Shown here piece by piece: positions 47,163-62,160 of a DNA stretch of 64,000 nucleotides. The stretch comes from Bacteroidales bacterium (GTDB lineage: Bacteria > Bacteroidota > Bacteroidia > Bacteroidales > UBA932): positions 8,374 through 72,373 of the forward strand of contig JAHDPK010000025.1 in the NCBI GenBank assembly GCA_018434395.1, written 5' to 3'. The notes under the pieces are model-generated. The model had not been told where the DNA came from, ran no database searches, and saw only the letters and a list, made by a program, of their open reading frames with translations. Made by a program: the position numbers and the translations under genes. Numbering within the stretch: position 1 is the first letter of the stretch; each line of letters begins with the position of its first letter.

Positions 47163-49070
47163 ATGGGAAAGATAATTGGAATTGACCTTGGTACAACCAA
47201 CTCCTGCGTTGCTGTAATGGAGGGAAATGAACCTACAGTCATAATTAACAGCGAAGGCAAAAGAACCACACCTTCGGTTGTTGCTTTTACCGAAAATGGT
47301 GAAAGAAAAGTTGGTGATCCTGCGAAAAGACAGGCTATAACAAATCCGGTAAGGACTATCTACTCAATTAAGAGATTCATGGGAGAGCCTTATGACAAGG
47401 TTAAAACTGAAATTGAACGTGTCACATACAAGGTTGAAAAGGGTGAAAATAATACAACCCGTATAAATATAGATGGGCGTCTTTATACTCCACAGGAGAT
47501 ATCAGCAATGATTCTTCAAAAGATGAAAAAGACAGCCGAAGACTATCTTGGACAAGAGGTTACTGAAGCTGTGATTACAGTTCCTGCATATTTCAGCGAT
47601 TCTCAAAGGCAAGCCACAAAAGAGGCCGGAGAGATAGCAGGCCTCAAAGTTAGAAGAATTATCAACGAACCTACAGCTGCTGCTCTCGCATATGGTCTTG
47701 ACAAGACTCATAAAGATATGAAGGTTGCCGTTTTCGACCTTGGTGGAGGTACATTCGATATATCTATACTCGAATTGGGTGATGGAGTATTTGAGGTAAA
47801 ATCCACAAATGGGGATACTCACCTTGGTGGTGATGACTTTGACCAAAAGATAATAGACTGGCTGGCAGAAGAGTTTATGAATGAAAACAGTGGCATTGAC
47901 CTGAGAAAAGATCCTATGGCGCTGCAAAGACTCAAGGAAGCAGCTGAAAAAGCTAAAATAGAGTTGTCAAGCCAAACAACCACAGAGATTAATCTTCCGT
48001 ACATCATGCCGGTTGATGGTATTCCTAAACACCTTGTAAAGACTTTGACTCGAGCAAAATTTGAACAACTTTGTGATTCCTTGATACAAAGAACTGTTGA
48101 ACCATGTCGCAAGGCATTAAGTGGTGCAAACCTTAAACCTTCGGACATCGATGAAGTAATTCTCGTTGGAGGTTCTACAAGAATACCTGCTGTACAACAG
48201 CTTGTTGAAAAATTCTTTGGCAAAACTCCAAGCAAAGGCGTTAACCCGGATGAGGTAGTTGCTGTAGGTGCTGCTATCCAGGGAGGTGTGCTTGCCGGAG
48301 ATGTTAAGGATGTGCTGTTACTCGATGTTACACCACTTTCTCTTGGTATCGAGACTTACGGTTCAGTAATGACAAAACTTATAGATGCAAATACAACTAT
48401 ACCAACCAGAAAGTCTGAAATCTTCAGCACTGCCAGCGACAATCAACCTTCTGTAGAGATTCACGTCCTTCAAGGTGAAAGACCAATGGCTAAGGACAAT
48501 AAAACTATCGGTCGTTTCCATCTGGACGGAATAGCTCCTGCTCCAAGAGGTGTGCCTCAAATTGAAGTTACCTTTGACATTGATGCTAACGGTATTCTGA
48601 ATGTCTCAGCAAAAGACAAAGGTACTGGCAAGGAGCAAAAAATACGTATTGAAGCATCATCAGGACTAACTGAGGCTGAAATCAAGAGAATGCGTGACGA
48701 AGCAAAAGCCAATGAAGCCGCTGATAGAGCCGAAAGAGAGAGAGTTGACAAAATCAACGCTGCAGATGGAATGATCTTCCAAACCGAGAAAAATCTTAAG
48801 GATTATGGAGACAAGATACCTGCAGACAAGAGAAGTGCAATTGAAAGTGCTCTTGCTCAACTCAAGGAAGCTCATAAAGCAGGAGATATAGCAGCCATCG
48901 ACAAAGCCATGGATAATATGAACAACGCATGGCACGCCGCTTCTGAAGACATGGCAAGAGCTGCTCAAAGTGGGCCTTCACAAAGTTCTTCCAGTGATTC
49001 AGGCTCTTCCACTGGCAGCAACGGCAGCGATAAAGAGGTCACCGATGTTGACTTTGAGGAAGTAAAGTAA
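47163..49070 (+). CDS. dnaK: molecular chaperone DnaK (Hsp70)
   Basis: [25 protein letters not shown] and a C-terminal acidic tail DVDFEEVK. Confidence 0.98.
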
Positions 49071-49105
49071 ACACAGAAACAAGTCTTAATCAAAAATAAG
49101 TAAAA

Positions 49106-49139
49106 AGCGGTAGTACAATGTGCTACTGCTTTTTTTTTG
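49106..49139 (+). terminator. rho-independent terminator of dnaK
   Basis: agcggtag / ctactgct 8-bp stem (one G-U pair) with a 9-nt loop, followed by T9 (49131-49139). Confidence 0.8.
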
Positions 49140-49430
49140 TTAAAAAAACTTACAATGTTCGGCGTTGGTCGCGCGTTGGACAAAAAATTGAGTATTCCTC
49201 ACAAAACGGCCAAAAGATACGTTTCCGACATCTGCAAAAACTGCAAGTTAATCCTTACAAAACACGATGAATACGCCAAAGTTTAACCCTCTAAGCCCCG
49301 CTTTCAAGTTTGAAACAAAATATTCTTTTTTTAAACTGGGATATCTAAAACTTATATTTATAAATCATTTTTAATATCAAAAAAAATCTTATTTTTGGAT
49401 AAAAGCTGTCAAGTCAAAATATCTACCACA

Positions 49431-49750
49431 ATGTTATTCTCAAACAGATTAAGACAATTACGAGCACAAAACAATCTACTACAACGCCAAATGTCTGCTG
49501 CTCTCCAATCGATACATGTCTATACAACAAAACAGAGCGCGGCGAACGCCGTGTTAAACGCGAACAGGTTATTGCACTTGCCAAAATATTCAAAGTAAAT
49601 CCAAACGATTTTTTATCCCTTTGGCTTTCCGACCGGATTATTGAAGTGTTAAAAAAAGAAAAAGAGTTGGCAGAAAAAGGATTGATTGTTGTACAAAAAT
49701 ATCTTAAAAATAATGTCAAAATTATCCGAAAGAATATTATCTATTATTGA
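49431..49750 (+). pseudogene. XRE-family HTH regulator disrupted by a 1-nt frameshift near 49506-49510
   Basis: One frame gives MLFSNRLRQLRAQNNLLQRQMSAALQ. From 49508 a different frame gives IDTCLYNKTERGERRVKREQVIALAKIFKVNPNDFLSLWLSDRIIEVLKKEKELAEKGL... Joined, they form a complete XRE HTH (…QMSAALQIDTCLYNKTERGER…). The sequence caatc looks like caaatc minus one A. Confidence 0.6.
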
Positions 49751-51050
49751 AGAATTAATAGACCAATACCAAGAGGACGACCGCTATAATCGTCCTTGGA
49801 TAATTGGTTTTAGCGGAGGAAAAGATTCTACCGTTCTGCTTACTTTGGTCTGGCTTGCACTTCTAAAAATCAAAGAAGACACCCCAAATGCAACTCTTAA
49901 GCGACAAGTTTATGTTGTTTGCAATGATACAATGGTAGAAAATCCTGTAATTGAAGAATATGTTAGTAATGTCCTACAAACCATTCAAAAAGCCGCCAAA
50001 GAACAGCAGCTACCGATTACAGTAAAAACTACCACACCACAAATTGAAGATACATTTTGGTGTTGCGTAATTGGCAAGGGTTATCCTGTGCCAAATAATT
50101 CATTCCGTTTCTGTACGGAAAAAATGAAGATTAAACCGACCTCAACATTAATAACCCATCAAGTCGCGGCGGACGGCGAAGCAATAATTCTAATCGGAAC
50201 ACGACTTGCAGAAAGTCAACAGCGGGCAAAATCAATCAAAAAACACGATATAAAAGGACACCGACTTTCAAAGCATCCGCTAAACCCAAACACTTACACT
50301 TATGCACCAATTAAAGAATTGATGTTAGAAGAAGTATGGTGGATTATCAATGCAATTCCTTCGCCTTGGGGCTTTGACAATCAGATTCTTTATAAAATCT
50401 ATATGGACGCTTCGGCAGACGATTACGAATGTCCTACTATTGTAACCAATGATTCCCACCGTAGCTGCGGACAAAGTCGCTTTGGTTGTTGGGTTTGCAC
50501 GGTTGTAAAAGAAGACAAATCAATGTCATCACTAATAAAAAACGGTGTTGGGTGGATGCAGCCCTTACTTGATTTTCGTAACAAATTGGTTGAAAATCGC
50601 AATGTTTCCGAAAAACGCAGTGAAACCCGGCGAAACGGACAAGCCGCCGTTGATAAAACAGGGCATAATATGGGCAACTACACAATGGAATACCGCATAC
50701 AACTTTTGCGGGAACTGCTCACAATCCAAAAAGACACACAGCAGTACCGTTCAAGCATTGACTTGATTACAAGCCAAGAACTGATTGCAATTCAAGTGAT
50801 GTGGTACAGGGACGGCAATTTTTCAACAACCGTAAATGATATTTACAACGAGGTTTATGGCTACGATTTGCAAAACGATAATATCAGTTTACAGGAAAGG
50901 CTTCTGCTCGAAAAATCATGCAACAATCCCGCTCATTATTCGCTCATTCAGGAGTTGCTTGCTTTGCAAAAAAATAAGGTACTGCTAATGAAAAAGTACG
51001 GACTTCAAACCGATTTAGAAGCTCGATTGGATAGTTTTATAAAGGGGTAA
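49713..51050 (+). CDS. dndC: DNA phosphorothioation sulfurtransferase DndC (PAPS-reductase/ATP-PPase fold)
   Basis: IIGFSGGKDST P-loop (SGGKDS at 49812-49829), FRFCTEKMKIKP and the Cys cluster CGQSRFGCWVCT. ATG at 49713. Confidence 0.9.
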   Translation: MSKLSERILSIIEELIDQYQEDDRYNRPWIIGFSGGKDSTVLLTLVWLALLKIKEDTPNATLKRQVYVVCNDTMVENPVIEEYVSNVLQTIQKAAKEQQLPITVKTTTPQIEDTFWCCVIGKGYPVPNNSFRFCTEKMKIKPTSTLITHQVAADGEAIILIGTRLAESQQRAKSIKKHDIKGHRLSKHPLNPNTYTYAPIKELMLEEVWWIINAIPSPWGFDNQILYKIYMDASADDYECPTIVTNDSHRSCGQSRFGCWVCTVVKEDKSMSSLIKNGVGWMQPLLDFRNKLVENRNVSEKRSETRRNGQAAVDKTGHNMGNYTMEYRIQLLRELLTIQKDTQQYRSSIDLITSQELIAIQVMWYRDGNFSTTVNDIYNEVYGYDLQNDNISLQERLLLEKSCNNPAHYSLIQELLALQKNKVLLMKKYGLQTDLEARLDSFIKG

Positions 51051-51054
51051 CAGT

Positions 51055-53172
51055 ATGAAAATAAAAACCATAGAACTAAATAATTACCGCCTCTATAAAG
51101 GGATTAATAAAATTGTTTTTCCAAATGGGAACAACAAGAATTTATACTTGATTTCTGGAGAAAACGGCTTTGGTAAAACTACATTTTTGCATTCTCTATT
51201 ATGGTGCTTATATGGTCGTTTGATGATAGATATTGATGAAACATTTCGTAAAGAAATGTCGAATGGAGGATACAACAATATGGTTATCAATAATCTAAAT
51301 CAAATTTGCAGACAAAAATTGCATACTGAAGTTACCCAAAGTATTCTTACACGCATAAAAAAAGAAGGTTATTCTGTTGATACTGAATTCATAAAAGAAT
51401 GGTCTCAATATTATGTTACTTTGGAATTTACAGATATACTTATTCCGTCAATTCCGTGTCAATCGTTGAAAATTATTCGTTCGTACGATATTCTTTTAGA
51501 TAAAGAAAATGTTGAAATTCTAATTGATGGCTTAATAAACGAATTGACAAGCGAAATTGGAAATGAGGTTTTTATTAATGATTTTATTCTCAATAAAGAT
51601 ATTGCTCGCTTCTTCTTTTTCGATTCAGAAAAAATTGTATCACTCGCTGAAACTAATACCATAGATGAAAAGCGCAAACTTTGTTCGGCTTACAATGAGG
51701 TTTTGGGAGTGAAAAAATACGAGGACTTGAAGAAAAACCTTGAAAATATGCGCTTACGTTTCCGTCGTAAATCTGATGATGTTGATAGCCGCAACAAATT
51801 GAACAGTTTACTTTCAAAACAAAAATCTCTGAATGAAACCATTGCTGAACAAGAACAACAAACCGCCGACCTCGACAGCCAACTGATATTGTTAAGAAAG
51901 GAAGATGAAAACCTGCAAATGCTACTTTTGCGAGAAGGCAATGGTACAACTATCGAAGAACTCAATCGGCAGGAAGCACTTTTGGAAACCACTCGAAAAA
52001 AAGATGCTGAATACAAACAACAACTCAAACTGTTTTTGGAATACGCACCTTTTGCAATTTCCGGAAAACTGTTACAGCAGACAAAAGTACAGATAGAGAA
52101 GGATTTTAATATTCTTCAATCTCAAAATGATGTTAGAAATCAGAATTTTCTATTAAGCAATATCAATGCTGAAATGCAGCAAGTGTTCAACAATATAAAA
52201 ATTTCTGCCAAAGACAAAAAACAATTAGTTGATTCGTTTAACAATATTATTTCCAAATATCAAACCAATACAACAGACGAAACGCCATTATTGAGAGTAA
52301 GCAAGGAAGATTTCGACGAGTTTTTGGCTGTATATTCAAATATTACAACAACTTACAGAGTTGAATTTGAGTACCTTGCAGATGATTACCGTAAAAACAA
52401 ACAGGTAATGGAACGTACAGCCAGGAATATATCTAATATGAACAGTAAAGAAAATGATAATATAATAAAATCTATTCGTAGACGAAAAAATGAAAGTGAA
52501 CGAAGAATTGCTGAATTGGAACAAAAAATCCGTCAGTTGCACGAGGAGCGTGGCGCAATAAACAAAGAATTAGCAGTTATAAGTCGCCAAATTTCGGAGT
52601 TAAGTAAAAAAGTGAGTCTTGATGATAGTAACAGCAAGAAAGATAAAGTTGCTGAGCAACTTATATCAGAACTAAATACATTTCTTATTTTACTGAAAAA
52701 AGAAAAAAAATCGGCTCTTGAAAGCCGTATAAAAACCACGATGAACAACTTAATGCATAAGGCAGATTTTATCCAAAATGTTGATGTTGTGGTGGTAGAT
52801 GATATAATAGATATAAATCTTTATGCTACAGTGGGTAGCATAATAAAAAAAGAATCTTTATCGAAAGGGGAGCAACAACTCTTTGCAACTTCTCTACTCA
52901 AAGCACTTGTGGAAGAATCAGGTATACAATTTCCTGTCTTTATTGACAGTCCCTTACAGAAGTTTGATAAGAGCCACGCAAAAAAAATCATTACAGAGTT
53001 TTACCCAACAGTTTCCAAACAGGTTATTTTATTCCCATTGTTACATAAAGAGTTAACTGAAGAAGAATTGGAAACAATGAAGCCTTATGTGAATTCCGCT
53101 TTTGTGCTGAAAAATAATAATTTATATTCACACATTCAGCAGGTTGATATTAATAATTTAATGAAAGAGTAA
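51055..53172 (+). CDS. dndD: DNA phosphorothioation ABC/SMC-like ATPase DndD
   Basis: IELNNYRLYKG...ISGENGFGKTTFLHSLLWCLYG (Walker A at 51157-51183), long central coiled coil, signature LSKGEQQLFA and Walker B FPVFIDSPL. Confidence 0.85.
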   Translation: MKIKTIELNNYRLYKGINKIVFPNGNNKNLYLISGENGFGKTTFLHSLLWCLYGRLMIDIDETFRKEMSNGGYNNMVINNLNQICRQKLHTEVTQSILTRIKKEGYSVDTEFIKEWSQYYVTLEFTDILIPSIPCQSLKIIRSYDILLDKENVEILIDGLINELTSEIGNEVFINDFILNKDIARFFFFDSEKIVSLAETNTIDEKRKLCSAYNEVLGVKKYEDLKKNLENMRLRFRRKSDDVDSRNKLNSLLSKQKSLNETIAEQEQQTADLDSQLILLRKEDENLQMLLLREGNGTTIEELNRQEALLETTRKKDAEYKQQLKLFLEYAPFAISGKLLQQTKVQIEKDFNILQSQNDVRNQNFLLSNINAEMQQVFNNIKISAKDKKQLVDSFNNIISKYQTNTTDETPLLRVSKEDFDEFLAVYSNITTTYRVEFEYLADDYRKNKQVMERTARNISNMNSKENDNIIKSIRRRKNESERRIAELEQKIRQLHEERGAINKELAVISRQISELSKKVSLDDSNSKKDKVAEQLISELNTFLILLKKEKKSALESRIKTTMNNLMHKADFIQNVDVVVVDDIIDINLYATVGSIIKKESLSKGEQQLFATSLLKALVEESGIQFPVFIDSPLQKFDKSHAKKIITEFYPTVSKQVILFPLLHKELTEEELETMKPYVNSAFVLKNNNLYSHIQQVDINNLMKE

Positions 53173-53175
53173 GTT

Positions 53176-53571
53176 ATGTTTTCGCAGATACGGACGAGTA
53201 GTCAAAACCGAGAAATTGTTGTTGAATTAACGCGTAAATTCAATTTGGGTGCTGAAAATATAATTGCCCGAATTGCGCTTGGATATTCATTACAATCAGG
53301 GATTAAATTCTCACCGTTGGATGTAAAAGACTCAGGCGGTAAGGTATATAGCAAAAATGTGTTGTTTGGAAATAACTATTCGATCTATGAATTTCTAATT
53401 TGTACACATTATCAGATTAACAGTAACGACAAAGATTTACCTCGGTATTTTAAATTGCACCTTGATGATGGGCTGCAACGTATATATGATGACATGAAAG
53501 ACAATCCCAATTTAGTGGGATATGATTATTTATTTGAAAAAATACAAAATGGTTTGGGTGAATTATGTTAA
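53176..53571 (+). CDS. dndE: DNA sulfur modification protein DndE
   Basis: 131 aa directly after dndD. IRTSSQNREIVVELTRKFNLGAENIIARIALGYSL parallels the DndE N-terminus as I remember it (…TGITPNIAARIAF..S…). Confidence 0.7.
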   Translation: MFSQIRTSSQNREIVVELTRKFNLGAENIIARIALGYSLQSGIKFSPLDVKDSGGKVYSKNVLFGNNYSIYEFLICTHYQINSNDKDLPRYFKLHLDDGLQRIYDDMKDNPNLVGYDYLFEKIQNGLGELC

Positions 53572-55868
53572 AAGGAGATTTAAAAAAAATTACAATTAAA
53601 GATTTGCTGAGAGATGGCAAAATATCTGTTCGCACAAGTAATTGTTGCTTTAATGCAGCCTTTGAATCTCTTTTTGATATATTAAAATATTATGAAAGTA
53701 GACATTCTTTTTTTAACATTAGAAATGCTGGAAGAAAAACTTGTTCTGAATTAGAAAATTTATGTAAAGAATATATTCCGCAAATTGAAATATCCGTTGA
53801 TACAGATGGCTTTTCTGAGAATGAAAATGAGGCTGAGAATGAAAATGTAAGACAAGCCGAAGTAGAAATTTTAATTAAGGAGGATGTTATTGGAGCAATT
53901 AATAATAAACTAATAGATGACAAAGATATTCTTTCTTATTTGGGAGTAAGGCAAAAGGAAATTCTTGAGAAAAAATTTGAAGATTGTATTAAAAAATATT
54001 CCATTCGCACAAAAAATCGACTAACTTCCGTTGGCTTTGATAATTTTGTGATTAATTATTTATTTGTCGAAAACCAGGCTCTATTAAAGATTAATGGTTT
54101 AGGAAAAAAGAGTTTAGAAGAGGCTATAGATTTGAAAAATAAAATAAAAGAGGAATGCCTATATTTAATTAATTTACCCGAAGAAGATATAGCAAGATTA
54201 AATTTGGTTCGCAAAAAAGTAGATATCATTCTAAATAGCTTTGTTGATGAATTTTATAAGATAAATAATTATTTGCCAATGTTTTGGATTTTGGAACAAA
54301 ATCTCGTTACAAGCAAAAATCGCAATATTGACATTCTGATAGACACATTCCCTGTTTTTCAAAATTACCAATCCAGAACATTTAAAGATATTGCAGCAAA
54401 ATATGATATAACAAGAAAAAGAATTAGGCAAATACGTAACTACACATTTCACAATACATTTGAAATAACCAATGAAGTAATTGATTATAAGAAAAATAGT
54501 GATTTAATCAAATACGCCGAATTGTTACAAAATAAAGATGATTGGAAATATATTTTAGAATTTTTGCAGGGTAAAGAGGTTATAAACCAAGAATCATTTG
54601 AGATTCAAGAATTATTGAAAAAAGAACAATGCAATCTATCGGCTCTGTTTGTATTGCAAATCATTGCATATATATTCAGGGATAAATACTTTCTTTTGGG
54701 CGGATTGAGCATATCAAATCAAAGTAAAAATAACACATTTCTCATCCGTAAAGAATTCGCAGACATTTTCAATTTTGAAAAATTTATTGAAGAATTTGCG
54801 AGCCATATTGCTGAAAATGAAACAGAATATGATTTAAATGTTGACGAGTTTTTATCTAATAGTACGTGTTGGGTTCATGGGATTGATCTATATAAATTTG
54901 ATAATATAGTTCACATTGTGAAAGAGATTATATTAAATGAATTTCACTTATATTCTAATCTTGACGGTTTAATTACGATTCCTTCAACGAAAGGAAGAAA
55001 CCCGCGTGATGTGGTTTATGATATACTAAAAGTAAAAGGCGAACCAATGCACCTCCATGATATTTTTGTTGAGTTTAAGAAAATTATGCCAGAACATAAA
55101 TACACACAAGAAGATAATCCAGATAGATTACGCCCCTATTTACAAAAGCACGAATCCATATCATACAGAAACAGAAGGAGTATTTACACACTAAAAGAGT
55201 GGAAACACATACGGACAGGAACAATACGTGATGCTATCATAAATTTTTTGGAAGATAAAGATTTACCACAATCAGTAGATGATATTACAGAGTATGTTTT
55301 ACTGCATTTCCCAGAAACAAACATTGCAAGTGTGCGAACAAGTATGTTTAATGATACACAAAAACGATTTTCGTTTTTTGGTGATGGCCTGTTTGGATTA
55401 GTAAGCAAAGAATATCCTGCCGAATACAAAGAAATAAAACAGCAGGAAGGACAAAGAAAATCGTTTGAACAACGACTTTATGATTTAGAAAAGTTTCTTT
55501 CCGAAAACGACCATTACCCTTTTTCTTCTTCCGATAACGAAGAAGAAAACTCTTTGTATCGTTGGTGGCGAATAATAAATAGAGACCCAAAATTGTCCGA
55601 ACTCCAAAAGGCAGAAATAGAAAGAATAAAAAATCAATATGCAGATTTCGATACAGAAAAAAAAGTTTACGAATGGTTTTGTCATTTCAATGATTTTAAA
55701 CTTTTTGTGCTTGAAAATCACCGTTTACCTTCATCAAACGGTCCAGAAAAATTTTTGTATGGTTGGTTCCGTAGAGCAAAAGACGATTTTTTAAACGATC
55801 GTTTAAATGAGAAACAAAGGACAAAATATGCAGAATTTTTTAAAGAGATAAAGTATGTTGAAAGATAA
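53565..55868 (+). CDS. 767-aa multi-DNA-binding-domain protein (2x RpoA-alphaCTD-like HhH, sigma70-r4-like HTH, 2x HARE-HTH-like, 2x helicase-associated (HA)-like repeats)
   Basis: aa 9-68 and 128-190 match the alphaCTD pattern (SVRTSNC..NA...N.G.K..SE.). aa 272-293 is DIAAKYDITRKRIRQIRN. aa 481-616 holds two wHTH-like units. aa 634-762 holds W/F-rich repeats. No catalytic motif was seen. Confidence 0.55.
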   Translation: MLKGDLKKITIKDLLRDGKISVRTSNCCFNAAFESLFDILKYYESRHSFFNIRNAGRKTCSELENLCKEYIPQIEISVDTDGFSENENEAENENVRQAEVEILIKEDVIGAINNKLIDDKDILSYLGVRQKEILEKKFEDCIKKYSIRTKNRLTSVGFDNFVINYLFVENQALLKINGLGKKSLEEAIDLKNKIKEECLYLINLPEEDIARLNLVRKKVDIILNSFVDEFYKINNYLPMFWILEQNLVTSKNRNIDILIDTFPVFQNYQSRTFKDIAAKYDITRKRIRQIRNYTFHNTFEITNEVIDYKKNSDLIKYAELLQNKDDWKYILEFLQGKEVINQESFEIQELLKKEQCNLSALFVLQIIAYIFRDKYFLLGGLSISNQSKNNTFLIRKEFADIFNFEKFIEEFASHIAENETEYDLNVDEFLSNSTCWVHGIDLYKFDNIVHIVKEIILNEFHLYSNLDGLITIPSTKGRNPRDVVYDILKVKGEPMHLHDIFVEFKKIMPEHKYTQEDNPDRLRPYLQKHESISYRNRRSIYTLKEWKHIRTGTIRDAIINFLEDKDLPQSVDDITEYVLLHFPETNIASVRTSMFNDTQKRFSFFGDGLFGLVSKEYPAEYKEIKQQEGQRKSFEQRLYDLEKFLSENDHYPFSSSDNEEENSLYRWWRIINRDPKLSELQKAEIERIKNQYADFDTEKKVYEWFCHFNDFKLFVLENHRLPSSNGPEKFLYGWFRRAKDDFLNDRLNEKQRTKYAEFFKEIKYVER

Positions 55869-58023
55869 AGATTTCAAATACAGATATTCAACAGGCAGAA
55901 AAGATTTGCCGATTGATTTTTTTGAGTTGGCATTGTCTAATAGCACTAAACTTGATATAGGGTTGGGTTATTTTAGTAGTGCTTCTTTTAATATCCTTTC
56001 TGTCGGCTTTGCTCGTTTTATCTGTAATGGAGGAAATATGCGTTTGTATATCAATCAATATCTTACCGAAGATGATTACAAACTACTACAGAACAATGAA
56101 ACTATTGATTTTGAAGAACGTATATTACAATCTTTTTTCTTACTAAAAACTACCTTATCGAAAAGGGACGAACATTTTTTCAAATGTTTGTCATATCTTA
56201 TTAGGAATAAAAGAATTGATATTAAAATAGTTATACCAAAGGATGGTGGTTTGGCACACGAAAAGTTTGGTATTTTTACAGATGATAACAACGATAAAGT
56301 GTCTTTTACCGGCTCAATGAATTTAACAGCTGCGGCATTGGTAAAAAACATTGAAACAATTGAATGTACTTGTTCATGGAAAGGTGAAGACAACACGGAA
56401 CGTATAGAAATAAGCGAACAAGATTTTGCGGAAATTTGGACAGGGGCAAACGACAATGTGTTAGTTTTTCCTGCAAAGAAATTCTGCCAAGAGATAGTAA
56501 AAACTTTTCCCAAAGTAGATTTGGACGAGTTGTTATTACAAGAGAAAGAAATAATTAAGAAACTCACAAACAAACAGATAGAAGAAATATCGACGGAAAA
56601 GAAACAAGTACAATTGCCTCATTTCCCTTACAAATATTCTGACGGTGCAAGACCGTATCAAATACAAGCGTACGAAGCGTGGGTTAAAAATGGTAAGCAG
56701 GGTATTTTTGCAATGGCAACAGGAACAGGAAAAACAATTACTTCTTTAAATTGCGCTTTGCAGGAGTACCATAAAGACAAATCGTATCAACTTTTGATTT
56801 TAGTTCCGACCATTGCTTTAGTTGAACAGTGGATTAATGAAATTGGCTTGTTTGACTTCAAAAATATTATCGAAATATATTCTGAAAATTCACAGTGGCG
56901 CAGACAAATTGTTTCACTAAAAAACAAAATTCAACAAGGCAGTAACGAAAATTTTGTCATTGTATCTACTTATCAATCATTTACAAACGATGATTTTCAA
57001 CAAATTTTACCGAAACTTCCCGATACAATGCTACTGATTGCAGATGAAGCACACAATATCGGCTCTGAAAATGTTAGAGCGGCTTTTAGAAAAATGAAAA
57101 TTAAAAAGCGCATTGCATTGTCGGCAACTCCGAACCGGATATACGACCAAGAAGGAACAGCCGAATTGGAAAGTTTTTTTAATGATAAACCGCCTTATGT
57201 TTATAGTTTTCCAATGAGCCAAGCAATAAAAGAAGGTCGTTTAATGGAGTACTGTTATTATCCAAAAATGGTTTATCTCAACGAGCCGGAAATGGATAAG
57301 TATGTGGAATATACTAAAAAATTAATGAATCTGTTTGATAGTGAAACAGGTAAGCTCAGAAACGAAGACGAAGCGACAAAAATTTTAATGTTGCGGAAAC
57401 AAGTATTGCATAAAGCAGAAGATAAAATGCGAGTATTGCGAGAAATTATTACAGAAATCGGACAGGACAAATTAAAATACTGTTTTGTTTATGTTCCCGA
57501 AGGCTATTCTGAAAACGAGGATGAAAGCATATTGCAAAGAATGCTATACACTATCAAAGAAGCATTTCCTAAAACAACTTGCAATACATATACTGGAAAT
57601 AACAACAAAAAAGAGCGTTCCGCTATTTTGAGTGGTTTTGAAAACGGCGACATAGCTGTTTTACTCGCAATGAAATGTTTAGACGAGGGCGTTGATGTTC
57701 CTAGAGCCCAATATGGTATTTTTGCGTCAAGCACAGGTAATCCTCGACAATTTATTCAACGTCGTGGTCGTTTACTACGTAAACACCCGGACAAAACATT
57801 TGCTTACATATATGATATGATTGTAGTACCTGATTTTCAATCACCACAATACTCGAATGATTTTTTCAGAATGGAAAGGTCATTGGTAAGAGGCGAACTA
57901 GCACGAGTGGCATATTTTGCTGATTTGGCATCTAACACTCATTCTGCGAAAGAGGTTTTGCAGGGTCTTGCAGACTATTATCAATTAAATTTATCAGAAC
58001 TAATTTTAAGTATAAATCAATAA
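55855..58023 (+). CDS. PLD-family (HKD) nuclease domain fused to an SF2 DEAH-box helicase (type III restriction Res-like)
   Basis: HKD motif AHEKFGIFTDD...FTGSMNLT (H135/K137 at 56257-56265). Helicase motif I AMATGTGKT (56716-56736), motif II DEAH (57043-57054), SATP, and motif VI QRRGRLLR. Confidence 0.85.
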   Translation: MLKDKDFKYRYSTGRKDLPIDFFELALSNSTKLDIGLGYFSSASFNILSVGFARFICNGGNMRLYINQYLTEDDYKLLQNNETIDFEERILQSFFLLKTTLSKRDEHFFKCLSYLIRNKRIDIKIVIPKDGGLAHEKFGIFTDDNNDKVSFTGSMNLTAAALVKNIETIECTCSWKGEDNTERIEISEQDFAEIWTGANDNVLVFPAKKFCQEIVKTFPKVDLDELLLQEKEIIKKLTNKQIEEISTEKKQVQLPHFPYKYSDGARPYQIQAYEAWVKNGKQGIFAMATGTGKTITSLNCALQEYHKDKSYQLLILVPTIALVEQWINEIGLFDFKNIIEIYSENSQWRRQIVSLKNKIQQGSNENFVIVSTYQSFTNDDFQQILPKLPDTMLLIADEAHNIGSENVRAAFRKMKIKKRIALSATPNRIYDQEGTAELESFFNDKPPYVYSFPMSQAIKEGRLMEYCYYPKMVYLNEPEMDKYVEYTKKLMNLFDSETGKLRNEDEATKILMLRKQVLHKAEDKMRVLREIITEIGQDKLKYCFVYVPEGYSENEDESILQRMLYTIKEAFPKTTCNTYTGNNNKKERSAILSGFENGDIAVLLAMKCLDEGVDVPRAQYGIFASSTGNPRQFIQRRGRLLRKHPDKTFAYIYDMIVVPDFQSPQYSNDFFRMERSLVRGELARVAYFADLASNTHSAKEVLQGLADYYQLNLSELILSINQ

Positions 58024-58034
58024 ATTTTCAAGAA

Positions 58035-58253
58035 ATGACAGCAGAAGATATTTTCAACGAGGTGATGAAATCGCCAGAATTAACAGACATTTTCAACATT
58101 CCACAAGAAGTTCTGAATAATATGGATTACAATGCGAGTTCGGAATATCAGGTCATTGAAGTTATCAAAGCAATTATTCGTGGGGAAGAAAACCATATGG
58201 ATAGTAACGCAATTTTTAGAAGTATTCAAAATCAAATAATACACTTAGGGTAA
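58035..58253 (+). CDS. 72-aa acidic hypothetical protein
   Basis: ORF tightly packed between the helicase (11-nt gap) and the ATPase (3-nt gap). No recognisable motif. Confidence 0.4.
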   Translation: MTAEDIFNEVMKSPELTDIFNIPQEVLNNMDYNASSEYQVIEVIKAIIRGEENHMDSNAIFRSIQNQIIHLG

Positions 58254-58256
58254 AAT

Positions 58257-60428
58257 ATGGCGACAATAATTAAATCCATTAGTTTCCAAAACTTCTACAA
58301 CTATTACGGAAATTTTGAGCAAAACACCTACCGTTTTACGACAGGAATCAATATTGTTAATGCTGATAACAATATGGGAAAATCCAAATTCTACAACGGT
58401 ATTCTCTGGATTTTGAATAATGCTGTTTACGATTCAGACTTAAAAAGAATGATAAGCGACACCTCCAGTCCAAGATTAGATTCTAATTATTTTAAAAAAA
58501 TGGTCTCGGGAAAAGCAAAAGCCGAAGAAACGGAGTTTGATATGGGAGTAAAAATTGAATTTGAAGAAAATAACACTCAATATTCTGTGTCAAAAATTGT
58601 GCATTGTAAAAAAAATATTTCTGATTGGGATTTTATTGAAAGATTAGATGTTTCTGAAACCACCAATGGCAGAACAATTCCTATTTTTGATATTGAGGAT
58701 AAGAAAAATAGAATACAAAAAATCATTCCTGTTGAATTACGAAACTACGCGTTGCTGCAAGGTGAATCAATGGAAAAATTAGTTGATTTATCCTCTCGCG
58801 CTGGTCTTTCCTCAACCATTGAAACTTTGGCTGGAATTTCAAATCTCATTGATATTTATTTGACTTGTGGTGATTTGTCAAAGAAAGCAAAGAGACTTTT
58901 AAACGACAAAGAAACTGAAGTGAACCTCAATAATGATCGAATCAAAATTTTAATTGAGGAAAGAGAGCGACTTGAAAAGTTCAAAGAAAACAACCTGTAT
59001 CAAATTGATACATATAAGGAAGAATTATCAAAAGCCCAAGCAAGGAAAGATGAGTTGGAAGCATTGCAGCTTAACGCAGCTAAACGAGAAAAATTTAGAG
59101 AAATTCAACGGCATCTCCAAGTGGAAATCAACACTCTGAAAAACAATAAGAAAGAAGCGGAGAAAAACATTACTTCATTATTATTTGCTAACAATCCACC
59201 TTGGTTGCTGATGGGCTTCCAAAACTCTATAGAATTGTTTGGGCAGAAACGCGACAAACTGAATAAAGACCTTACTTTGCAAAGTGCAGCAAAAGACCCA
59301 ACGATTCTTTTACCTGAAGGCTCTCCCGATATCCCGTCATTAAAAAGAATGTTAGAAACTGAAAAATGTGAAGTTTGCGGACGTCCAGCTCCAAAAGGTT
59401 CTGAATTTTGGGAACATATCAAAATGGTTATGGAACGTCCTCGAAATGTCGAAAATACAAATTCTAACAATTTTACTACTTTTTACGGAGATATTCAGAA
59501 AACTGTCGGTTCATTTTTGTTGAATATCCCAGAAATACCACAAGAAATTGAAAAATATCGCGACAAAATCAATGACATTGACAATAAAATCAGAGAGAAA
59601 CAGGAAGATTACAACATTGCAAAACAGGAATTTATGAGTGCAGGCGGTAATGAAAACGAATCAGGTAATACAGATAAAAAAAATATTGATGATCATTCAT
59701 TAGCAGAACGCACAATAGAAGATAAAAAACGCTTAATTGAAATGGCTAACGACCAAATTAGGCAATGGAATATTCGATTGCAACAGATTGAAAAAGAATT
59801 GGATTCTATCAATCAAAGTTCAGAAATCACACAATATCGTAATTTCAAAGATATGATGTGTTATATTGAGTCAATGTTTTTAAACTCGAAAGAACGCATT
59901 TTTGATAGGATTTTGAACTCGTTAGAAATCAAAGCTAATCAAAAATATAGCGAACTTACAGCGGGCAATCAGGTTGCAGGTGGTCGCTTATGTTTCAAAA
60001 AACAAGAAGATAATACCGTTCAGGTTTCCATAAGGAACATAAATGACAACGAACTAACAGGACTTGGATCAGGGTTCCAGCGAATGAAACAACTGTCTAT
60101 CGTAATGGCAATTATTTCTTCGAGAATTGGCAATCAACACTTTGATTTTCCGTTTATATCAGATGCACCGTTTTCCGAGTTTGGCGACAACTTTATTTAC
60201 AACTTTTTCCGAATTTCCCCTCAGGTATTTACGCAAAGTATCATACTTATCAAAGATTTATATGACCCCAATACAGATAATTATTTGAATGAAAAGGGGA
60301 ACAAAATTTTAGAGAAGATGAGAAGCGGCGAGATTTGCGGCACTTTCTATGTAAATACTGTACTAGAAAGAGCTGATGCAACAAATTTAGTTACAAATAA
60401 TAAATGTTATTTTCCAGATAAATTCTAA
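58257..60428 (+). CDS. Rad50/SMC/DndD-like ATPase with central CxxC
   Basis: N-terminal ISFQNFYNY...NADNNMGKSKF (Walker A at 58362-58385) and long K/E-rich coiled-coil segments. CEVC lies at aa 371-374 of 723 (59367-59378). C-terminal signature-like GLGSGFQRMKQLS and Walker B-like FPFISDAPF. Confidence 0.75.
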   Translation: MATIIKSISFQNFYNYYGNFEQNTYRFTTGINIVNADNNMGKSKFYNGILWILNNAVYDSDLKRMISDTSSPRLDSNYFKKMVSGKAKAEETEFDMGVKIEFEENNTQYSVSKIVHCKKNISDWDFIERLDVSETTNGRTIPIFDIEDKKNRIQKIIPVELRNYALLQGESMEKLVDLSSRAGLSSTIETLAGISNLIDIYLTCGDLSKKAKRLLNDKETEVNLNNDRIKILIEERERLEKFKENNLYQIDTYKEELSKAQARKDELEALQLNAAKREKFREIQRHLQVEINTLKNNKKEAEKNITSLLFANNPPWLLMGFQNSIELFGQKRDKLNKDLTLQSAAKDPTILLPEGSPDIPSLKRMLETEKCEVCGRPAPKGSEFWEHIKMVMERPRNVENTNSNNFTTFYGDIQKTVGSFLLNIPEIPQEIEKYRDKINDIDNKIREKQEDYNIAKQEFMSAGGNENESGNTDKKNIDDHSLAERTIEDKKRLIEMANDQIRQWNIRLQQIEKELDSINQSSEITQYRNFKDMMCYIESMFLNSKERIFDRILNSLEIKANQKYSELTAGNQVAGGRLCFKKQEDNTVQVSIRNINDNELTGLGSGFQRMKQLSIVMAIISSRIGNQHFDFPFISDAPFSEFGDNFIYNFFRISPQVFTQSIILIKDLYDPNTDNYLNEKGNKILEKMRSGEICGTFYVNTVLERADATNLVTNNKCYFPDKF

Positions 60429-60432
60429 AACA

Positions 60433-60933
60433 ATGGACGGTTCAGTATTAAAAGATAAAATAGGCCAAAAAAGACCCGGGTATAGAGAACAATATCGTTC
60501 TTTGATTGAAAGTATTTCGGTTAAAGGAGACACAAGCGGAAAAGGGGATTTTTCTGCCTTTGGAGCTTTCTATCAAACCTATATGTATGCTTTTGTTATT
60601 GGTTACAAATTAGGAACACCAAAATTTATAAAAAAAGGTGAAAATACAATCAATTTTGCTTCTTTCGTAGATTGGAAGCCAACTTTAGTAAGGGATTTTA
60701 TTTTGATGCTGTTACTCAATGATACAGAAAAATATAGTGTTCCATATTCTTGGTTAGAATTGGAGAATGCTAACGAAGAAACGATTGAGAATTTTATTGC
60801 CGAATTGTTTCGACAAATGGAAGGTTATGCAAATGCGGGTTTTGAATATTTGCAAGACAAGTGGGATAATGAAAAGATTGAGTTTCAAGACCCATTTGTG
60901 TTTGTTAATTTTTTATTGGGCTTGAAAGAGTAA
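60433..60933 (+). CDS. 166-aa hypothetical protein, last intact gene of the dnd-linked operon
   Basis: 4-nt gap after the ATPase gene. No catalytic motif. It may belong to the database family named DNA phosphorothioation-associated protein 4, but I cannot verify this. Confidence 0.45.
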   Translation: MDGSVLKDKIGQKRPGYREQYRSLIESISVKGDTSGKGDFSAFGAFYQTYMYAFVIGYKLGTPKFIKKGENTINFASFVDWKPTLVRDFILMLLLNDTEKYSVPYSWLELENANEETIENFIAELFRQMEGYANAGFEYLQDKWDNEKIEFQDPFVFVNFLLGLKE

Positions 60934-60937
60934 ATTT

Positions 60938-61120
60938 ATGCCCGAAACTCAAAACATGAATCACAAATTCATTTTGGATAGTCAATTCTCCTTCAAAGGC
61001 AACGATTTCTGGGCAGTCTTCCACAGAGACATTTACAACAAAGAGGATATAAGCAAGTTAGGACTGAACGAAAGGCAAATTAAAGCCATTCTTTATGTGA
61101 AAGAAAACGGACGTATATGA
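60938..61120 (+). pseudogene. short remnant resembling the C-terminal HTH region of Fic/AlbA_2-type ATP-binding regulators
   Basis: …LGLNERQIKAILYVKENGRI* matches the common …LNERQ.KAL.YVKENGKITN.EY… element but stops inside the HTH. It lacks the usual ~400-aa N-terminal part. Confidence 0.35.
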
Positions 61121-61160
61121 TACTCCCCAGTTTTCAACCACCAGGAATGGTTTTTAAGTT

Positions 61161-61188
61161 GTAAGCATCTGAGAGTCTGTGCAAAAAC
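61161..61188. repeat. left terminal inverted repeat
   Basis: gtaagcatctgagagtctgtgcaaaaac. It matches the reverse complement of 62161-62188 at 26 of 28 positions (CT versus TC at positions 9-10). Confidence 0.85.
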
Positions 61189-62160
61189 TAATTACAATCT
61201 TTTTACAATTACACCTTTAAATGTTCTAAAATAACTTGCATTATCGATAGAAAAATTGTATATTTAGCTGTAATTTAATTTGTTAGATATGCAACATGTT
61301 ATTGGTGAAGATAGAAATCAGTTCCAAATTATGTGTTTAGAACAATTGGTTCCGGAAAATTCCTGGGCAAGAGTAATTGATCTATTTGTTGAATTACTTC
61401 CTCGACTACATTGACAAAAAAGTTGCAGAATATGAAGCTCAATTAGACGAGTCTGATGCAGAGGATAAGGCAGTTCTCAAGGAAAAGATTCAATTGAAAC
61501 TTAACAGATGCCAAAAATAAATTACTAGTTCATTCTCATATTAGAGGTACAACAGACAAACGAGAACTGGCTACTGTTGCACTCGAAGTACAAGAATTAC
61601 TGGGGAAAGAAACTTTTAATACTCTCAGTGATGCAGGTTACTCTACAGATGATCAGCTTAGTATTTGTAAGGATTCCAGTATTTGCACTTATTCGTCACC
61701 TATGCCAAGCACTTCACCTTATGATAATTGCCTGCCCATCCGGTGAAAGGATGACTTGTGGCTCCGGTAAAAAATGTCAAATGAGAGAAATGTGCACGCA
61801 GAATAAAGGAGGGAGAGTTATCGAAAGAAGTGAATTTCAGGATATAATTGATGAGAACAATAGGAGAGTTATTGACAACCCTGATTATTACAAACTTCGA
61901 AGAGCAATAATTGAACATCCTTTACCATAATGAGGGGCAAGAAAAATGTAATGAGTGAAGCCTATATCCTTATGATTATTTATAATCTTAAACGTTGTTT
62001 GTCAATAATGGGAGAAAAAGACTTTAGAGATAAGATTTGTTGCCAATTTAATTGTAATAATAATTCCCATTATTTGAAAATCAATTTTATGAGAGCCTAA
62101 TATCCTTATTATAAAAACTAGTATAAAAAACCAATCAGTAGGCACTTCGTTTAAAAAGTG

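Follow-up and report, generated by a model that had tools for sequence, protein, structure and literature searches.

The 723-aa protein encoded at positions 58257..60428 (forward strand) of the window, i.e., of the whole 64,000-nt stretch of a Bacteroidales contig analyzed here, is PbeC, a Rad50-like ATPase of the known phosphorothioate-linked antiviral system Dnd-PbeABCD. The ORF starts with ATG, its boundaries and length coincide with those given in the initial annotation, and its assignment to the CxC clade of coiled-coil ABC ATPases is based on PADLOC, AF2 and Foldseek results. We consider it probable that this protein of the Dnd-linked PbeABCD module combines an ATPase head, an antiparallel arm and a CxxC apex, and forms dimers joined at the apex via a zinc hook.

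[quoted passage not shown] The zinc-hook reading of the PbeC CxxC is supported by the computational analysis, having been already published as a prediction in that source, and our literature search found no experimental study of the hook in PbeC. As the hook has been predicted for the PbeC family before, the window brings no new principle. It adds quantified support, as the two cysteines match the P-loop lysine in invariance and the local motif resembles that of the Rad50 hook, and also presents a Bacteroidota variant of the operon with an extra predicted DNA-binding protein. PbeABCD is a widespread phosphorothioate-linked defence, where the PbeA nuclease must act according to comparative genomics predictions, and the hook is of importance for it since the architecture is determined by this element. 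With the two subunits connected at the apex, a Rad50-like dimer could form a bridge between DNA segments or enclose DNA, and could license PbeA.

The best PADLOC match of the 723-aa protein is a PbeC model (E 4e-23, compared to 1e-14 for LmuB), and eight PbeC models match it nearly along the full length, with E-values ranging from 4e-23 to 1.5e-8. The PbeC models also strongly match the true DndD (51055..53172) and hence are not specific on their own. The NCBIfam search of PbeC yields neither DndD (TIGR03185, E <= 0.01) nor Rad50, the Pfam search yields only a sub-threshold AAA_23 match with SMC_N not detected, and a direct sequence search against PDB chains returns only coiled-coil noise. These data agree with the initial description of the protein as a second DndD-related coiled-coil ABC ATPase of the operon; its label, a DndD-like ATPase, was correct as regards the relationship, but missed the already described PbeC.

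Conservation and position of the CxxC pair

The CEVC motif formed by the predicted zinc-hook ligands C371 and C374 (59367..59378, forward strand) is situated in the middle of the molecule, exactly where it had been initially reported. Its conservation was assessed on 111 full-length 50%-cluster representatives of the family with 22–48% identity (alignment of n = 112 sequences). A mid-molecule Cx[VIL]C is present in 111 out of 111 representatives, and both cysteines are invariant in 112 out of 112 aligned sequences. Only eight columns of this alignment are 100% invariant, G41/K42, G169/E170, C371/C374, D636, and Q660. Of 100,000 shuffles of the PbeC sequence, 7.5% contain a CxxC anywhere, and 0.46% contain one no more than 20 residues away from the midpoint. 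Judging by the alignment, which is a stronger test than the shuffling, C371-x-x-C374 is a real feature, as conserved as the ATP-binding residues, and not a chance pair.

A local conservation peak of the family falls on aa 361–380. CE[VI]C is found in all full-length close homologues of PbeC except one, which has CLVC; column 373 (V373 in PbeC) is occupied by V, I or L in all 112 sequences, and R376 is retained in 82 of them. The C-x-x-C spacing is observed in all 231 full-length homologues examined, in contrast to the published clade label “CxC”, which may be just shorthand. The clade is said to have been defined by Krishnan et al. 2020 (Aravind lab, NAR 48:10045). In a few homologues CWC, CFC or CMC motifs are seen, where an extra Cys precedes the usual CxxC by two residues and does not constitute a separate motif. 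No third or fourth conserved Cys or His is found within aa 350–392 in the 112 sequences. H387 (in “WEH”) was considered as a candidate third metal ligand and rejected, being present in only 35 of the 112 sequences.

Predicted fold and comparison with Rad50, SMC and Lamassu proteins

In the AF2 model of the PbeC monomer (pLDDT 80.9) the ABC head is split into aa 1–190 and 577–719, with a 386-residue insert of long helices between them. The computational model shows the N- and C-terminal parts as one predicted nucleotide-binding head of the Rad50/SMC type. The insert extends away from the head and returns to it, the two strands of this antiparallel helical arm having approximately 150–160 residues each. 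According to DSSP assignment on the AF2 model, the ascending arm comprises aa 195–345 (helices 195–222, 227–309, and 322–345; 58839..59291, forward strand; periodicity z 4.4–11.1), and the descending arm, aa 406–568 (helices 406–423, 426–461, 471–518, and 522–568; 59472..59960, forward strand; periodicity z 4.6–9.0), the helix breaks of the two arms being roughly mirror-symmetric. The family-averaged hydrophobic periodicity of 3.4–3.7 residues is observed in every arm helix (z 4.4–11.1) and is absent in the head halves (z 0.8); hence the heptad-like segments noted initially on both sides of the center are real, and only the arms show an amphipathic pattern.

The arms are connected by an apex module, aa 346–405 (59292..59471, forward strand), in which DSSP assigns a Pro-rich linker, a helix (358–368), the CxxC knuckle (370–377), another helix (383–392), and a second linker. 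The module contains seven prolines, and its pLDDT is 82–84 at aa 361–390 and about 55–60 in the flanking linkers. The proposed location of CxxC at a hairpin turn agrees with the AF2 monomer, where the short knuckle is found between two long antiparallel arms, and from this secondary-structure topology we infer that C371 and C374 would be at the arm apex.

The same compact helix-knuckle-helix, modelled in the monomer at pLDDT 82–84, might be expected if CxxC were an intramolecular zinc knuckle or a redox-sensitive pair that stabilizes the arm turn, with dimerization, if any, occurring via the heads only; moreover, some SMC-like defence ATPases described for Lamassu have lost or duplicated their hooks and dimerize in other ways (bioRxiv 10.1101/2025.04.02.646746). 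We regard this as unlikely, since a stable intramolecular zinc site requires four ligands and no further Cys or His is conserved in aa 350–392, disulfides are unusual in the cytoplasm, and the cysteine pair is as invariant as the catalytic residues, which argues for an essential, geometry-critical role.

An intermolecular hook is in line with the structural matches. The best Foldseek matches of PbeC are Rad50 (7zr1_D, E 1.2e-15, followed by human Rad50 chains), while MukB, JetC, SMC and LmuB (9hqx_B, 6e-8) rank below it; the matched parts of the Rad50, SMC, MukB and JetC structures are heads with their arms. When the profile of the apex region is compared with PDB, the zinc-hook constructs of P. 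furiosus Rad50, 6zff (E 0.0057) and 1l8d (E 0.038), come first, with the C-l-V-C-n-R pattern of the PbeC family aligned on C-P-V-C-G-R of Rad50; the match to the Rad50-hook profile is a weak one, with a per-domain E of about 0.3, and coiled-coil composition accounts for part of it. The initially suggested resemblance of the apex to the Rad50 hook is therefore favored by Rad50 being on top of the Foldseek ranking and, weakly, of the apex-profile ranking.

PbeC and Rad50/SbcC have in common a split ABC head and an antiparallel coiled coil whose turn carries CxxC. At the same time, the predicted PbeC apex is an approximately 60-residue helix-knuckle-helix with low-confidence Pro-rich linkers, whereas that of Rad50 is a bare hairpin, and the PbeC arms, unlike those of Rad50, have only about 150–160 residues. 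PbeC has D-A-P in Walker B, Gln660 and a degenerate signature in place of D-E, the H-loop His and LSGG of Rad50/SbcC. Finally, PbeC is accompanied by an HKD-helicase and a probable RHH-type protein, whereas the partner of Rad50/SbcC is the Mre11/SbcD phosphoesterase; no metallophosphoesterase of the Mre11/SbcD type is found among the Pfam matches of the operon or in related loci. [quoted passage not shown] LmuB of Lamassu, like PbeC, belongs to the SMC/Rad50-like ATPases of defence systems, and in many cases carries a CxxC hook. However, PbeC matches LmuB less well than the PbeC models, and its operon context differs from that of Lamassu: PbeC is the only operon protein with PADLOC matches to LmuB, LmuA and LmuC partners are absent, and no operon protein matches a Lamassu effector model in PADLOC.

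ATPase motifs and possible mechanism

The Walker A motif (P-loop) ADNNMGKS (aa 36–43; 58362..58385, forward strand) had been located correctly and described as non-canonical; the location holds, but A36-x4-G41-K42-S43 fits the canonical [AG]x4GK[ST] pattern. In the 112 sequences column 36 contains G (81) or A (30), column 43, S (94) or T (18), and G41 and K42 are invariant; hence Walker A gives no grounds for doubting that the protein is a competent ATPase. In the Q-loop region LLQGE (aa 166–170; 58752..58766, forward strand) G169 and E170 are conserved in 100% of sequences and Q168 in 84%. The signature-like GLGSGFQRMKQLS (aa 602–614; 60060..60098, forward strand) and the Walker B-like FPFISDAP (aa 631–638; 60147..60170, forward strand) are present as initially described. 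The former is aligned by BLASTP with SLSKGEQQL of DndD and is degenerate family-wide, with only N/S/G in column 604 and S/G/A in column 606 of the 112 sequences, and in the latter FPFISD is followed by A-P (D636 100%, A637 97%, P638 99%), the catalytic Glu being absent. The H-loop position is occupied by the invariant Q660 (60234..60236, forward strand; 100% of 112), aligned with Q655 of the window’s DndD.

As seen in the alignment, the true departures are Walker B D-A-P lacking Glu, the H-loop His replaced by Gln, and a signature that has degenerated, all of them family-wide. These features shared throughout the family suggest that the ATPase is slow and works as a switch, and is not inactive. 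The motifs that deviate in Walker B, H-loop and signature positions, and not in Walker A, provide clear targets for mutagenesis, along with the invariant cysteines and the local motif resembling the Rad50 hook.

Each PbeC chain contributes just two conserved ligands for a metal, so the most likely arrangement is one tetrahedral Zn2+ held jointly by the apices of two chains, similar to Rad50. This would yield a PbeC dimer joined at the hook, with the heads engaging on ATP. The dimer, together with PbeD (a probable double-RHH, DndE-like DNA binder), may hold or scan DNA, and the HKD-nuclease/SF2-helicase PbeA would be licensed to act on DNA without the phosphorothioate mark that DndCDE introduces; PbeB may be a small regulator. 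According to Xiong et al. (2019; PMC6459918), defence in Natrinema requires all four pbe genes, residual defence is retained without pbeA and none without pbeC, and cleavage of viral DNA was not detectable. As no such cleavage was detected, the effector step is uncertain.

With two ligands only offered by PbeC, the metal site could also be heterotypic, the PbeC apex docking on another subunit, so that the hook would tether or gate the nuclease-helicase. The obvious candidate is PbeA with the conserved C-x-C of its PLD domain at aa 171–173, as PbeA and PbeC are always co-encoded, and C-[TSAI]-C is found at aa 170–173 in all PbeA orthologues checked (53–84% identity), which are only 11 and fairly close. 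Still, this arrangement seems highly improbable: the PbeA cysteines fall in the PLD-fold strand next after GSxN/NxE and may serve simply for core packing, the C-x-V-C-x-R context of the PbeC pair matches the homotypic Rad50 hook, and the residual defence without pbeA, with complete loss without pbeC (Xiong et al., PMC6459918), means that PbeC works at least partly without PbeA.

Operon content and relation to DndD

The pbeC gene belongs to a tightly packed eight-gene operon dndC-dndD-dndE-767aa-pbeA-pbeB-pbeC-pbeD on the forward strand. The modification half is formed by dndC (49686..51050; PADLOC DndC, 1e-140), dndD (51055..53172; NCBIfam TIGR03185, 5e-60), and dndE (53176..53571; Pfam DndE, 1.4e-24). 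The operon contains no dndA, and no tRNA gene flanking the island was found.

PbeC and the window’s DndD are of similar size, and share the D-x-P Walker B (IDSP in DndD), the H-loop Gln and, probably, a DndE-type partner. On the other hand, the invariant pair C371/C374 of PbeC has no counterpart in DndD, which lacks a hook and, in agreement with the initial observation, a central CxxC: its cysteines are only at positions 51, 85, 135, and 210, with no C-x(1–4)-C. It is hardly conceivable that PbeC is a second DndD acting in phosphorothioate modification with no part in defence, even though many homologues are named “DNA sulfur modification protein DndD” in JGI records and D-[AS]-P in Walker B and the H-loop Gln are common to both proteins, since PbeC has no match to TIGR03185, in contrast to the adjoining DndD, the BLASTP similarity between the two is barely detectable (E 0.15), PbeC is always encoded between pbeA/pbeB and pbeD, and, in the archaeal study (PMC6459918), dndCDEA alone suffices for modification, where DndD serves, while pbeC is needed for defence only.

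Compared to the published PbeABCD, the Bacteroidota operon lacks dndA and has an extra gene of approximately 750 codons between dndE and pbeA. In the window this gene (53565..55868, forward strand) encodes a 767-aa multi-HTH protein with Pfam matches to RNA_pol_A_CTD and Sigma70_r4, that is, an HhH domain similar to the RNAP alpha-CTD and a sigma-r4 HTH; some homologues also have HARE-HTH. The gene overlaps both dndE and pbeA. The protein evolves fast and has 72 homologues, none of them named, and its position is conserved across loci. This conserved gene appears to be undescribed, being outside the Pbe/CxC-system components named in the relevant sections of the published accounts. We tentatively suggest, with rather low confidence, a five-protein Pbe variant in Bacteroidota, in which the hook-joined PbeC dimer, PbeA, PbeB and PbeD would be complemented by this translationally coupled protein supplying target or modification discrimination and linking the modification and restriction halves.

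The pbeA gene (55855..58023, forward strand; PADLOC PbeA, 6e-252) encodes a 722-aa fusion of an HKD (PLD) nuclease and an SF2 helicase, with Pfam domains PLDc_2, ResIII, and Helicase_C, and an NCBIfam match to dnd_restrict_1 (1e-127). Its HxK...GSxN motif is intact and is retained in 11 out of 11 orthologues. The small ORF in the pbeB position (58035..58253, forward strand; 72 aa), which is kept between pbeA and pbeC, has orthologues with 31–82% identity and no family match in NCBIfam and relaxed Pfam searches.

The gene in the pbeD position (60433..60933, forward strand; 166 aa) begins 5 nt after pbeC, and such a gene is found directly 3' of pbeC wherever the downstream flank is available. 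For members of the CxC clade an obligate cognate (clade-2) DndE, PbeD, is expected in the operon. BLASTP, relaxed Pfam, comparison of the profile with PDB sequences, and hhalign were all negative for the relation of PbeD to DndE. In the AF2 model PbeD has a strand-helix-helix unit repeated twice and a long C-terminal helix; DndE (4lrv_E) gives the best geometry in Foldseek, at a level that is not significant (E 2.1, TMt 0.53), and the NCBIfam match to dnd_assoc_4 has E 0.0036. Based on the modelled fold, PbeD is probably a clade-2 DndE-like protein with a double ribbon-helix-helix.

The order PbeA-PbeB-PbeC-PbeD is observed in every locus with sufficient flanks, in 26 genome loci and in metagenome contigs. 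The suggested partnership of PbeC with the PLD(HKD)-helicase finds support both in this conserved synteny and in the published archaeal genetics (PMC6459918). The ATPase length of approximately 700 aa, the insert of approximately 390 residues, the cysteine pair at the predicted apex, and the adjoining dndCDE are also as in published PbeC/CxC systems, and so is the gene order, comprising the HKD-SF2 PbeA, a small fast-evolving PbeB, PbeC, and a small, probably DndE-like PbeD.

Invariance of the PbeC cysteine pair

The ATG-initiated ORF at 58257–60428 (+) encodes a 723-aa protein with eight cysteines and the motifs ADNNMGKS (nt 58362–58385), CEVC (aa 371–374, nt 59367–59378), GLGSGFQRMKQLS (aa 602–614) and FPFISDAP (aa 631–638), while the sequence of DndD from the same window (51055–53172) has four cysteines and no such pair. 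The initial annotation, which described these motifs and a DndD lacking CxxC, is thus reproduced in both coordinates and residues. Among shuffled versions of PbeC, 7.5% contain a CxxC at any position, and 0.46% have one no more than 20 residues from the midpoint.

The protein belongs to a described family. In PMC10853773, CxC ABC ATPases are identical to PbeC, the clade is defined by a predicted Zn-hook at the coiled-coil apex, and the first report is credited to the same authors' 2020 ABC ATPase classification. A zinc hook formed by this pair, the central idea, has therefore been predicted computationally in print before; the literature search found no experiments on the PbeC hook. The feature is of modest interest, chiefly as a well-quantified experimental target.

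A word-indexed search yielded 770 homologues, and the motif was read in the best 120 of them, where all full-length members but one (CLVC) carry CE[VI]C. Strings of the CxC type in a few homologues were rejected as a distinct motif, being produced by an extra cysteine two residues upstream of the same CxxC. PMC10853773 uses only "CxC" and writes neither CxxC nor Rad50; as every PbeC-family sequence examined has C-x-x-C, "CxC" is probably a mere label. When representatives of 50%-identity clusters were searched exhaustively, 471 matched; 111 of these are full-length, and all 111 (22–48% identity) have Cx[VIL]C between residues ~345 and 396. Family identity and the invariance of the pair are computationally established.

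Only eight columns of the MAFFT alignment of 112 sequences are 100% invariant: G41 and K42 in the P-loop, G169 and E170 in the Q-loop (QGE), C371 and C374, D636 in Walker B, and Q660 at the H-loop position. Position 373 is V, I or L in 112/112 sequences, and R376 is arginine in 82. No further Cys or His is conserved in this alignment within aa 350–392 (H387 is present in 35/112), therefore exactly two conserved metal ligands per chain are predicted. An intramolecular structural knuckle formed by the pair is disfavored and rather improbable, because a third or fourth ligand is not conserved.

Predicted fold, ATPase motifs and relatives

The evidence best fits a Rad50-like dimer, for which we infer zinc binding, homodimerization, DNA tethering and PbeA licensing: two PbeC chains would be joined at their apices by one Zn2+, their heads would engage ATP-dependently, and the dimer would act on DNA together with PbeD, licensing PbeA for action against DNA that carries no phosphorothioate mark.

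The AlphaFold2 monomer, built from a 71-sequence alignment (mean pLDDT 80.9, pTM 0.59), has beta/alpha head segments at aa 1–190 and 577–719, with the pair placed between helical arms: long helices 195–222, 227–309 and 322–345 on the N-terminal side of the knuckle, and 406–423, 426–461, 471–518 and 522–568 on its C-terminal side, the helix breaks being approximately mirror-symmetric. The apex comprises a loop, helix 358–368, a two-residue beta bridge around 371–376, helix 383–392 and a loop; pLDDT is 82–84 at aa 361–390 and ~55–60 in the proline-rich linkers on both sides. As the head halves must join as one ABC domain, the helices must go out and back; on topological grounds, rather than from a measured distance, the pair would lie at the apex of the arms. 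Family-averaged hydrophobicity has a 3.4–3.7-residue periodicity in all arm helices (z 4.4–11.1, the observed value being reached by at most 1/500 shuffles) and none in the head halves (z 0.8).

The earlier concern that Walker A is non-canonical proved unfounded, since A36-D-N-N-M-G41-K42-S43 conforms to [AG]x4GK[ST], with G or A in column 36 in 111/112 sequences. Unlike Rad50 and SMC proteins, PbeC has Walker B of the hhhhD type followed by an invariant A-P where those have Glu, an invariant Gln at the H-loop position, and a degenerate signature (N/S/G in column 604, S/G/A in column 606). The window DndD has IDSP and a Gln aligned with the PbeC H-loop position. These departures are traits of the wider DndD/CxC assemblage and not decay of the window copy, and PbeC may be a slow or switch-like ATPase, judging by its sequence.

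The top Foldseek match in PDB is Rad50 from the C. thermophilum Mre11-Rad50-Nbs1 complex (7zr1_D, E 1.2e-15), followed by human Rad50, with MukB, JetC, SMC heads and Lamassu LmuB (9hqx_B, 6e-8) ranking lower; TM-scores are low (0.3–0.4), as expected of elongated flexible proteins. An apex profile (aa 318–430, 38 diverse family members) searched against all PDB sequences has P. furiosus Rad50 zinc-hook constructs 6zff (E 0.0057) and 1l8d (E 0.038) as its best two matches, aligning the family "ekC-l-V-C-n-R-ka" onto "KGK-C-P-V-C-G-R-EL", a likeness that is weak, but specific in rank. The only NCBIfam match of PbeC is partial (aa 212–393), to "archaea-specific SMC-related protein", with none to Rad50 or DndD. 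The interpretation given in the initial annotation is supported in part: the predicted hook stands, as does the PLD-helicase partnership considered below, and the Walker A doubt falls.

Operon, partners and genomic setting

Eight plus-strand genes lie close together, neighbors being separated or overlapping by only a few nucleotides: dndC (49686–51050; PADLOC 1e-140), dndD (51055–53172; TIGR03185 5e-60), dndE (53176–53571; Pfam DndE 1e-24), a 767-aa gene (53565–55868), pbeA (55855–58023; PADLOC PbeA 6e-252, PLDc_2, ResIII and Helicase_C, NCBIfam dnd_restrict_1 1e-127), a 72-aa ORF without family match (58035–58253), pbeC (58257–60428; PADLOC PbeC 4e-23, LmuB 1e-14, Pfam AAA_23 just 0.0075) and a 166-aa ORF (60433–60933; NCBIfam dnd_assoc_4 0.0036 only). 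The layout corresponds to the Dnd-PbeABCD system described by Xiong et al. (2019; PMC6459918). The related loci compared are metagenome contigs plus 26 loci from genomes, most of them Bacteroidota MAGs; a Paludibacteraceae MAG is nearest (99% identity). The order pbeA – small ORF – pbeC – 166-aa ORF is kept in all loci with enough flank, so that the conserved partners support the proposed partnership with the PLD-helicase.

According to PMC10853773, PbeA consists of an HKD endoDNase joined to an SF2 helicase, PbeB is small and evolves fast, and PbeD, the cognate (clade-2) DndE, contains two RHH repeats. The HKD-type motif HEKFGIFTDD...GSMNLT of the window PbeA (aa 135–158, 56257–56328) is intact, and HxK...GSxN is retained in 11/11 orthologues, at odds with the original PbeABCD paper (PMC6459918), which states that PbeA has no nuclease motif. 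Just past it lies a C-x-C pair (CTC, aa 171–173, 56365–56373), conserved in 11/11 orthologues checked (53–84% identity), which could serve PLD-fold core packing or be a metal or partner site. It would be the natural counterpart if the PbeC pair and a second subunit together made up a heterotypic metal site, but it may be core packing. We consider such a site very unlikely.

The acidic 72-aa ORF (58035–58253 (+)) occupies the PbeB position between pbeA and pbeC, conserved across related loci at 31–82% identity. The AlphaFold2 model of the 166-aa protein (pLDDT 85.9) has two strand-helix-helix units and then a long helix, a layout that would be expected of a double-RHH DndE. It has no significant Foldseek match, E. 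coli DndE 4lrv_E being the only listed one whose geometry is reasonable (TMt 0.53, rmsd 6.2 Å, E 2.1), and sequence and profile comparisons with DndE are negative.

According to PMC6459918, defense against virus SNJ1 required all four pbe genes, and modification was achieved by dndCDEA alone. That PbeC is a second modification-type DndD is highly improbable, given model searches, synteny and these published genetics. The modification module of the window (49686–53571) consists of dndC-dndD-dndE only; a dndA/iscS-type cysteine desulfurase and dndB are absent from the window operon and the related loci examined. The true DndD (51055–53172) scores far better with the PADLOC "PbeC" model PDLC02742 (3e-115) than with the best PADLOC DndD model (1e-75), hence some PADLOC PbeC models are unspecific for the hook-bearing clade, and DndD could be mislabeled as PbeC.

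The island (window 49000–62000) has G+C of 28–35% versus 38–43% in the flank and is inserted immediately downstream of dnaK, with no flanking tRNA gene; a transposase remnant (weak IS1182 match) lies at 61577–61930. In related locus L025 (5178–10243), a truncated pbeC (aa 473–723) and pbeD ~2 kb from dnaK suggest a decayed copy at the same dnaK-side site. In locus L001 (12699–22172), the same operon has as its neighbors an AbiEi/AbiEii pair and the relaxase, MobC, TraG and TraJ genes of a conjugative element of the CTnDOT-like type. Near-identical layouts occur in MAGs labeled Methanobrevibacter, Clostridiales, Spirochaetales and Fibrobacter (L012, L014, L019, L022; PbeC identity to the window copy 44–61%), an outcome either of horizontal spread via mobile elements or of contaminated bins.

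The 767-aa gene

Of all parts of the locus, the 767-aa ORF (53565–55868 (+)), overlapping dndE and pbeA by a few nucleotides, is explained least. Its multi-HTH product, which evolves faster than any other large protein of the operon, has weak Pfam matches to RNA_pol_A_CTD (aa 19–65) and Sigma70_r4 (aa 257–295), and two homologues contain HARE-HTH (PF05066). It is not listed among Pbe/CxC-system components in the available text of the publications. Only 72 homologues, all unnamed or "hypothetical", were found among 5.8 billion clustered proteins; the gene position is conserved in ~20 related loci (24–62% identity). By eye, W/Y-rich repeats at the C-terminus, without Pfam match, recall helicase-associated (HA) repeats, and in one related locus (L003) the gene is split by an IS21 insertion.
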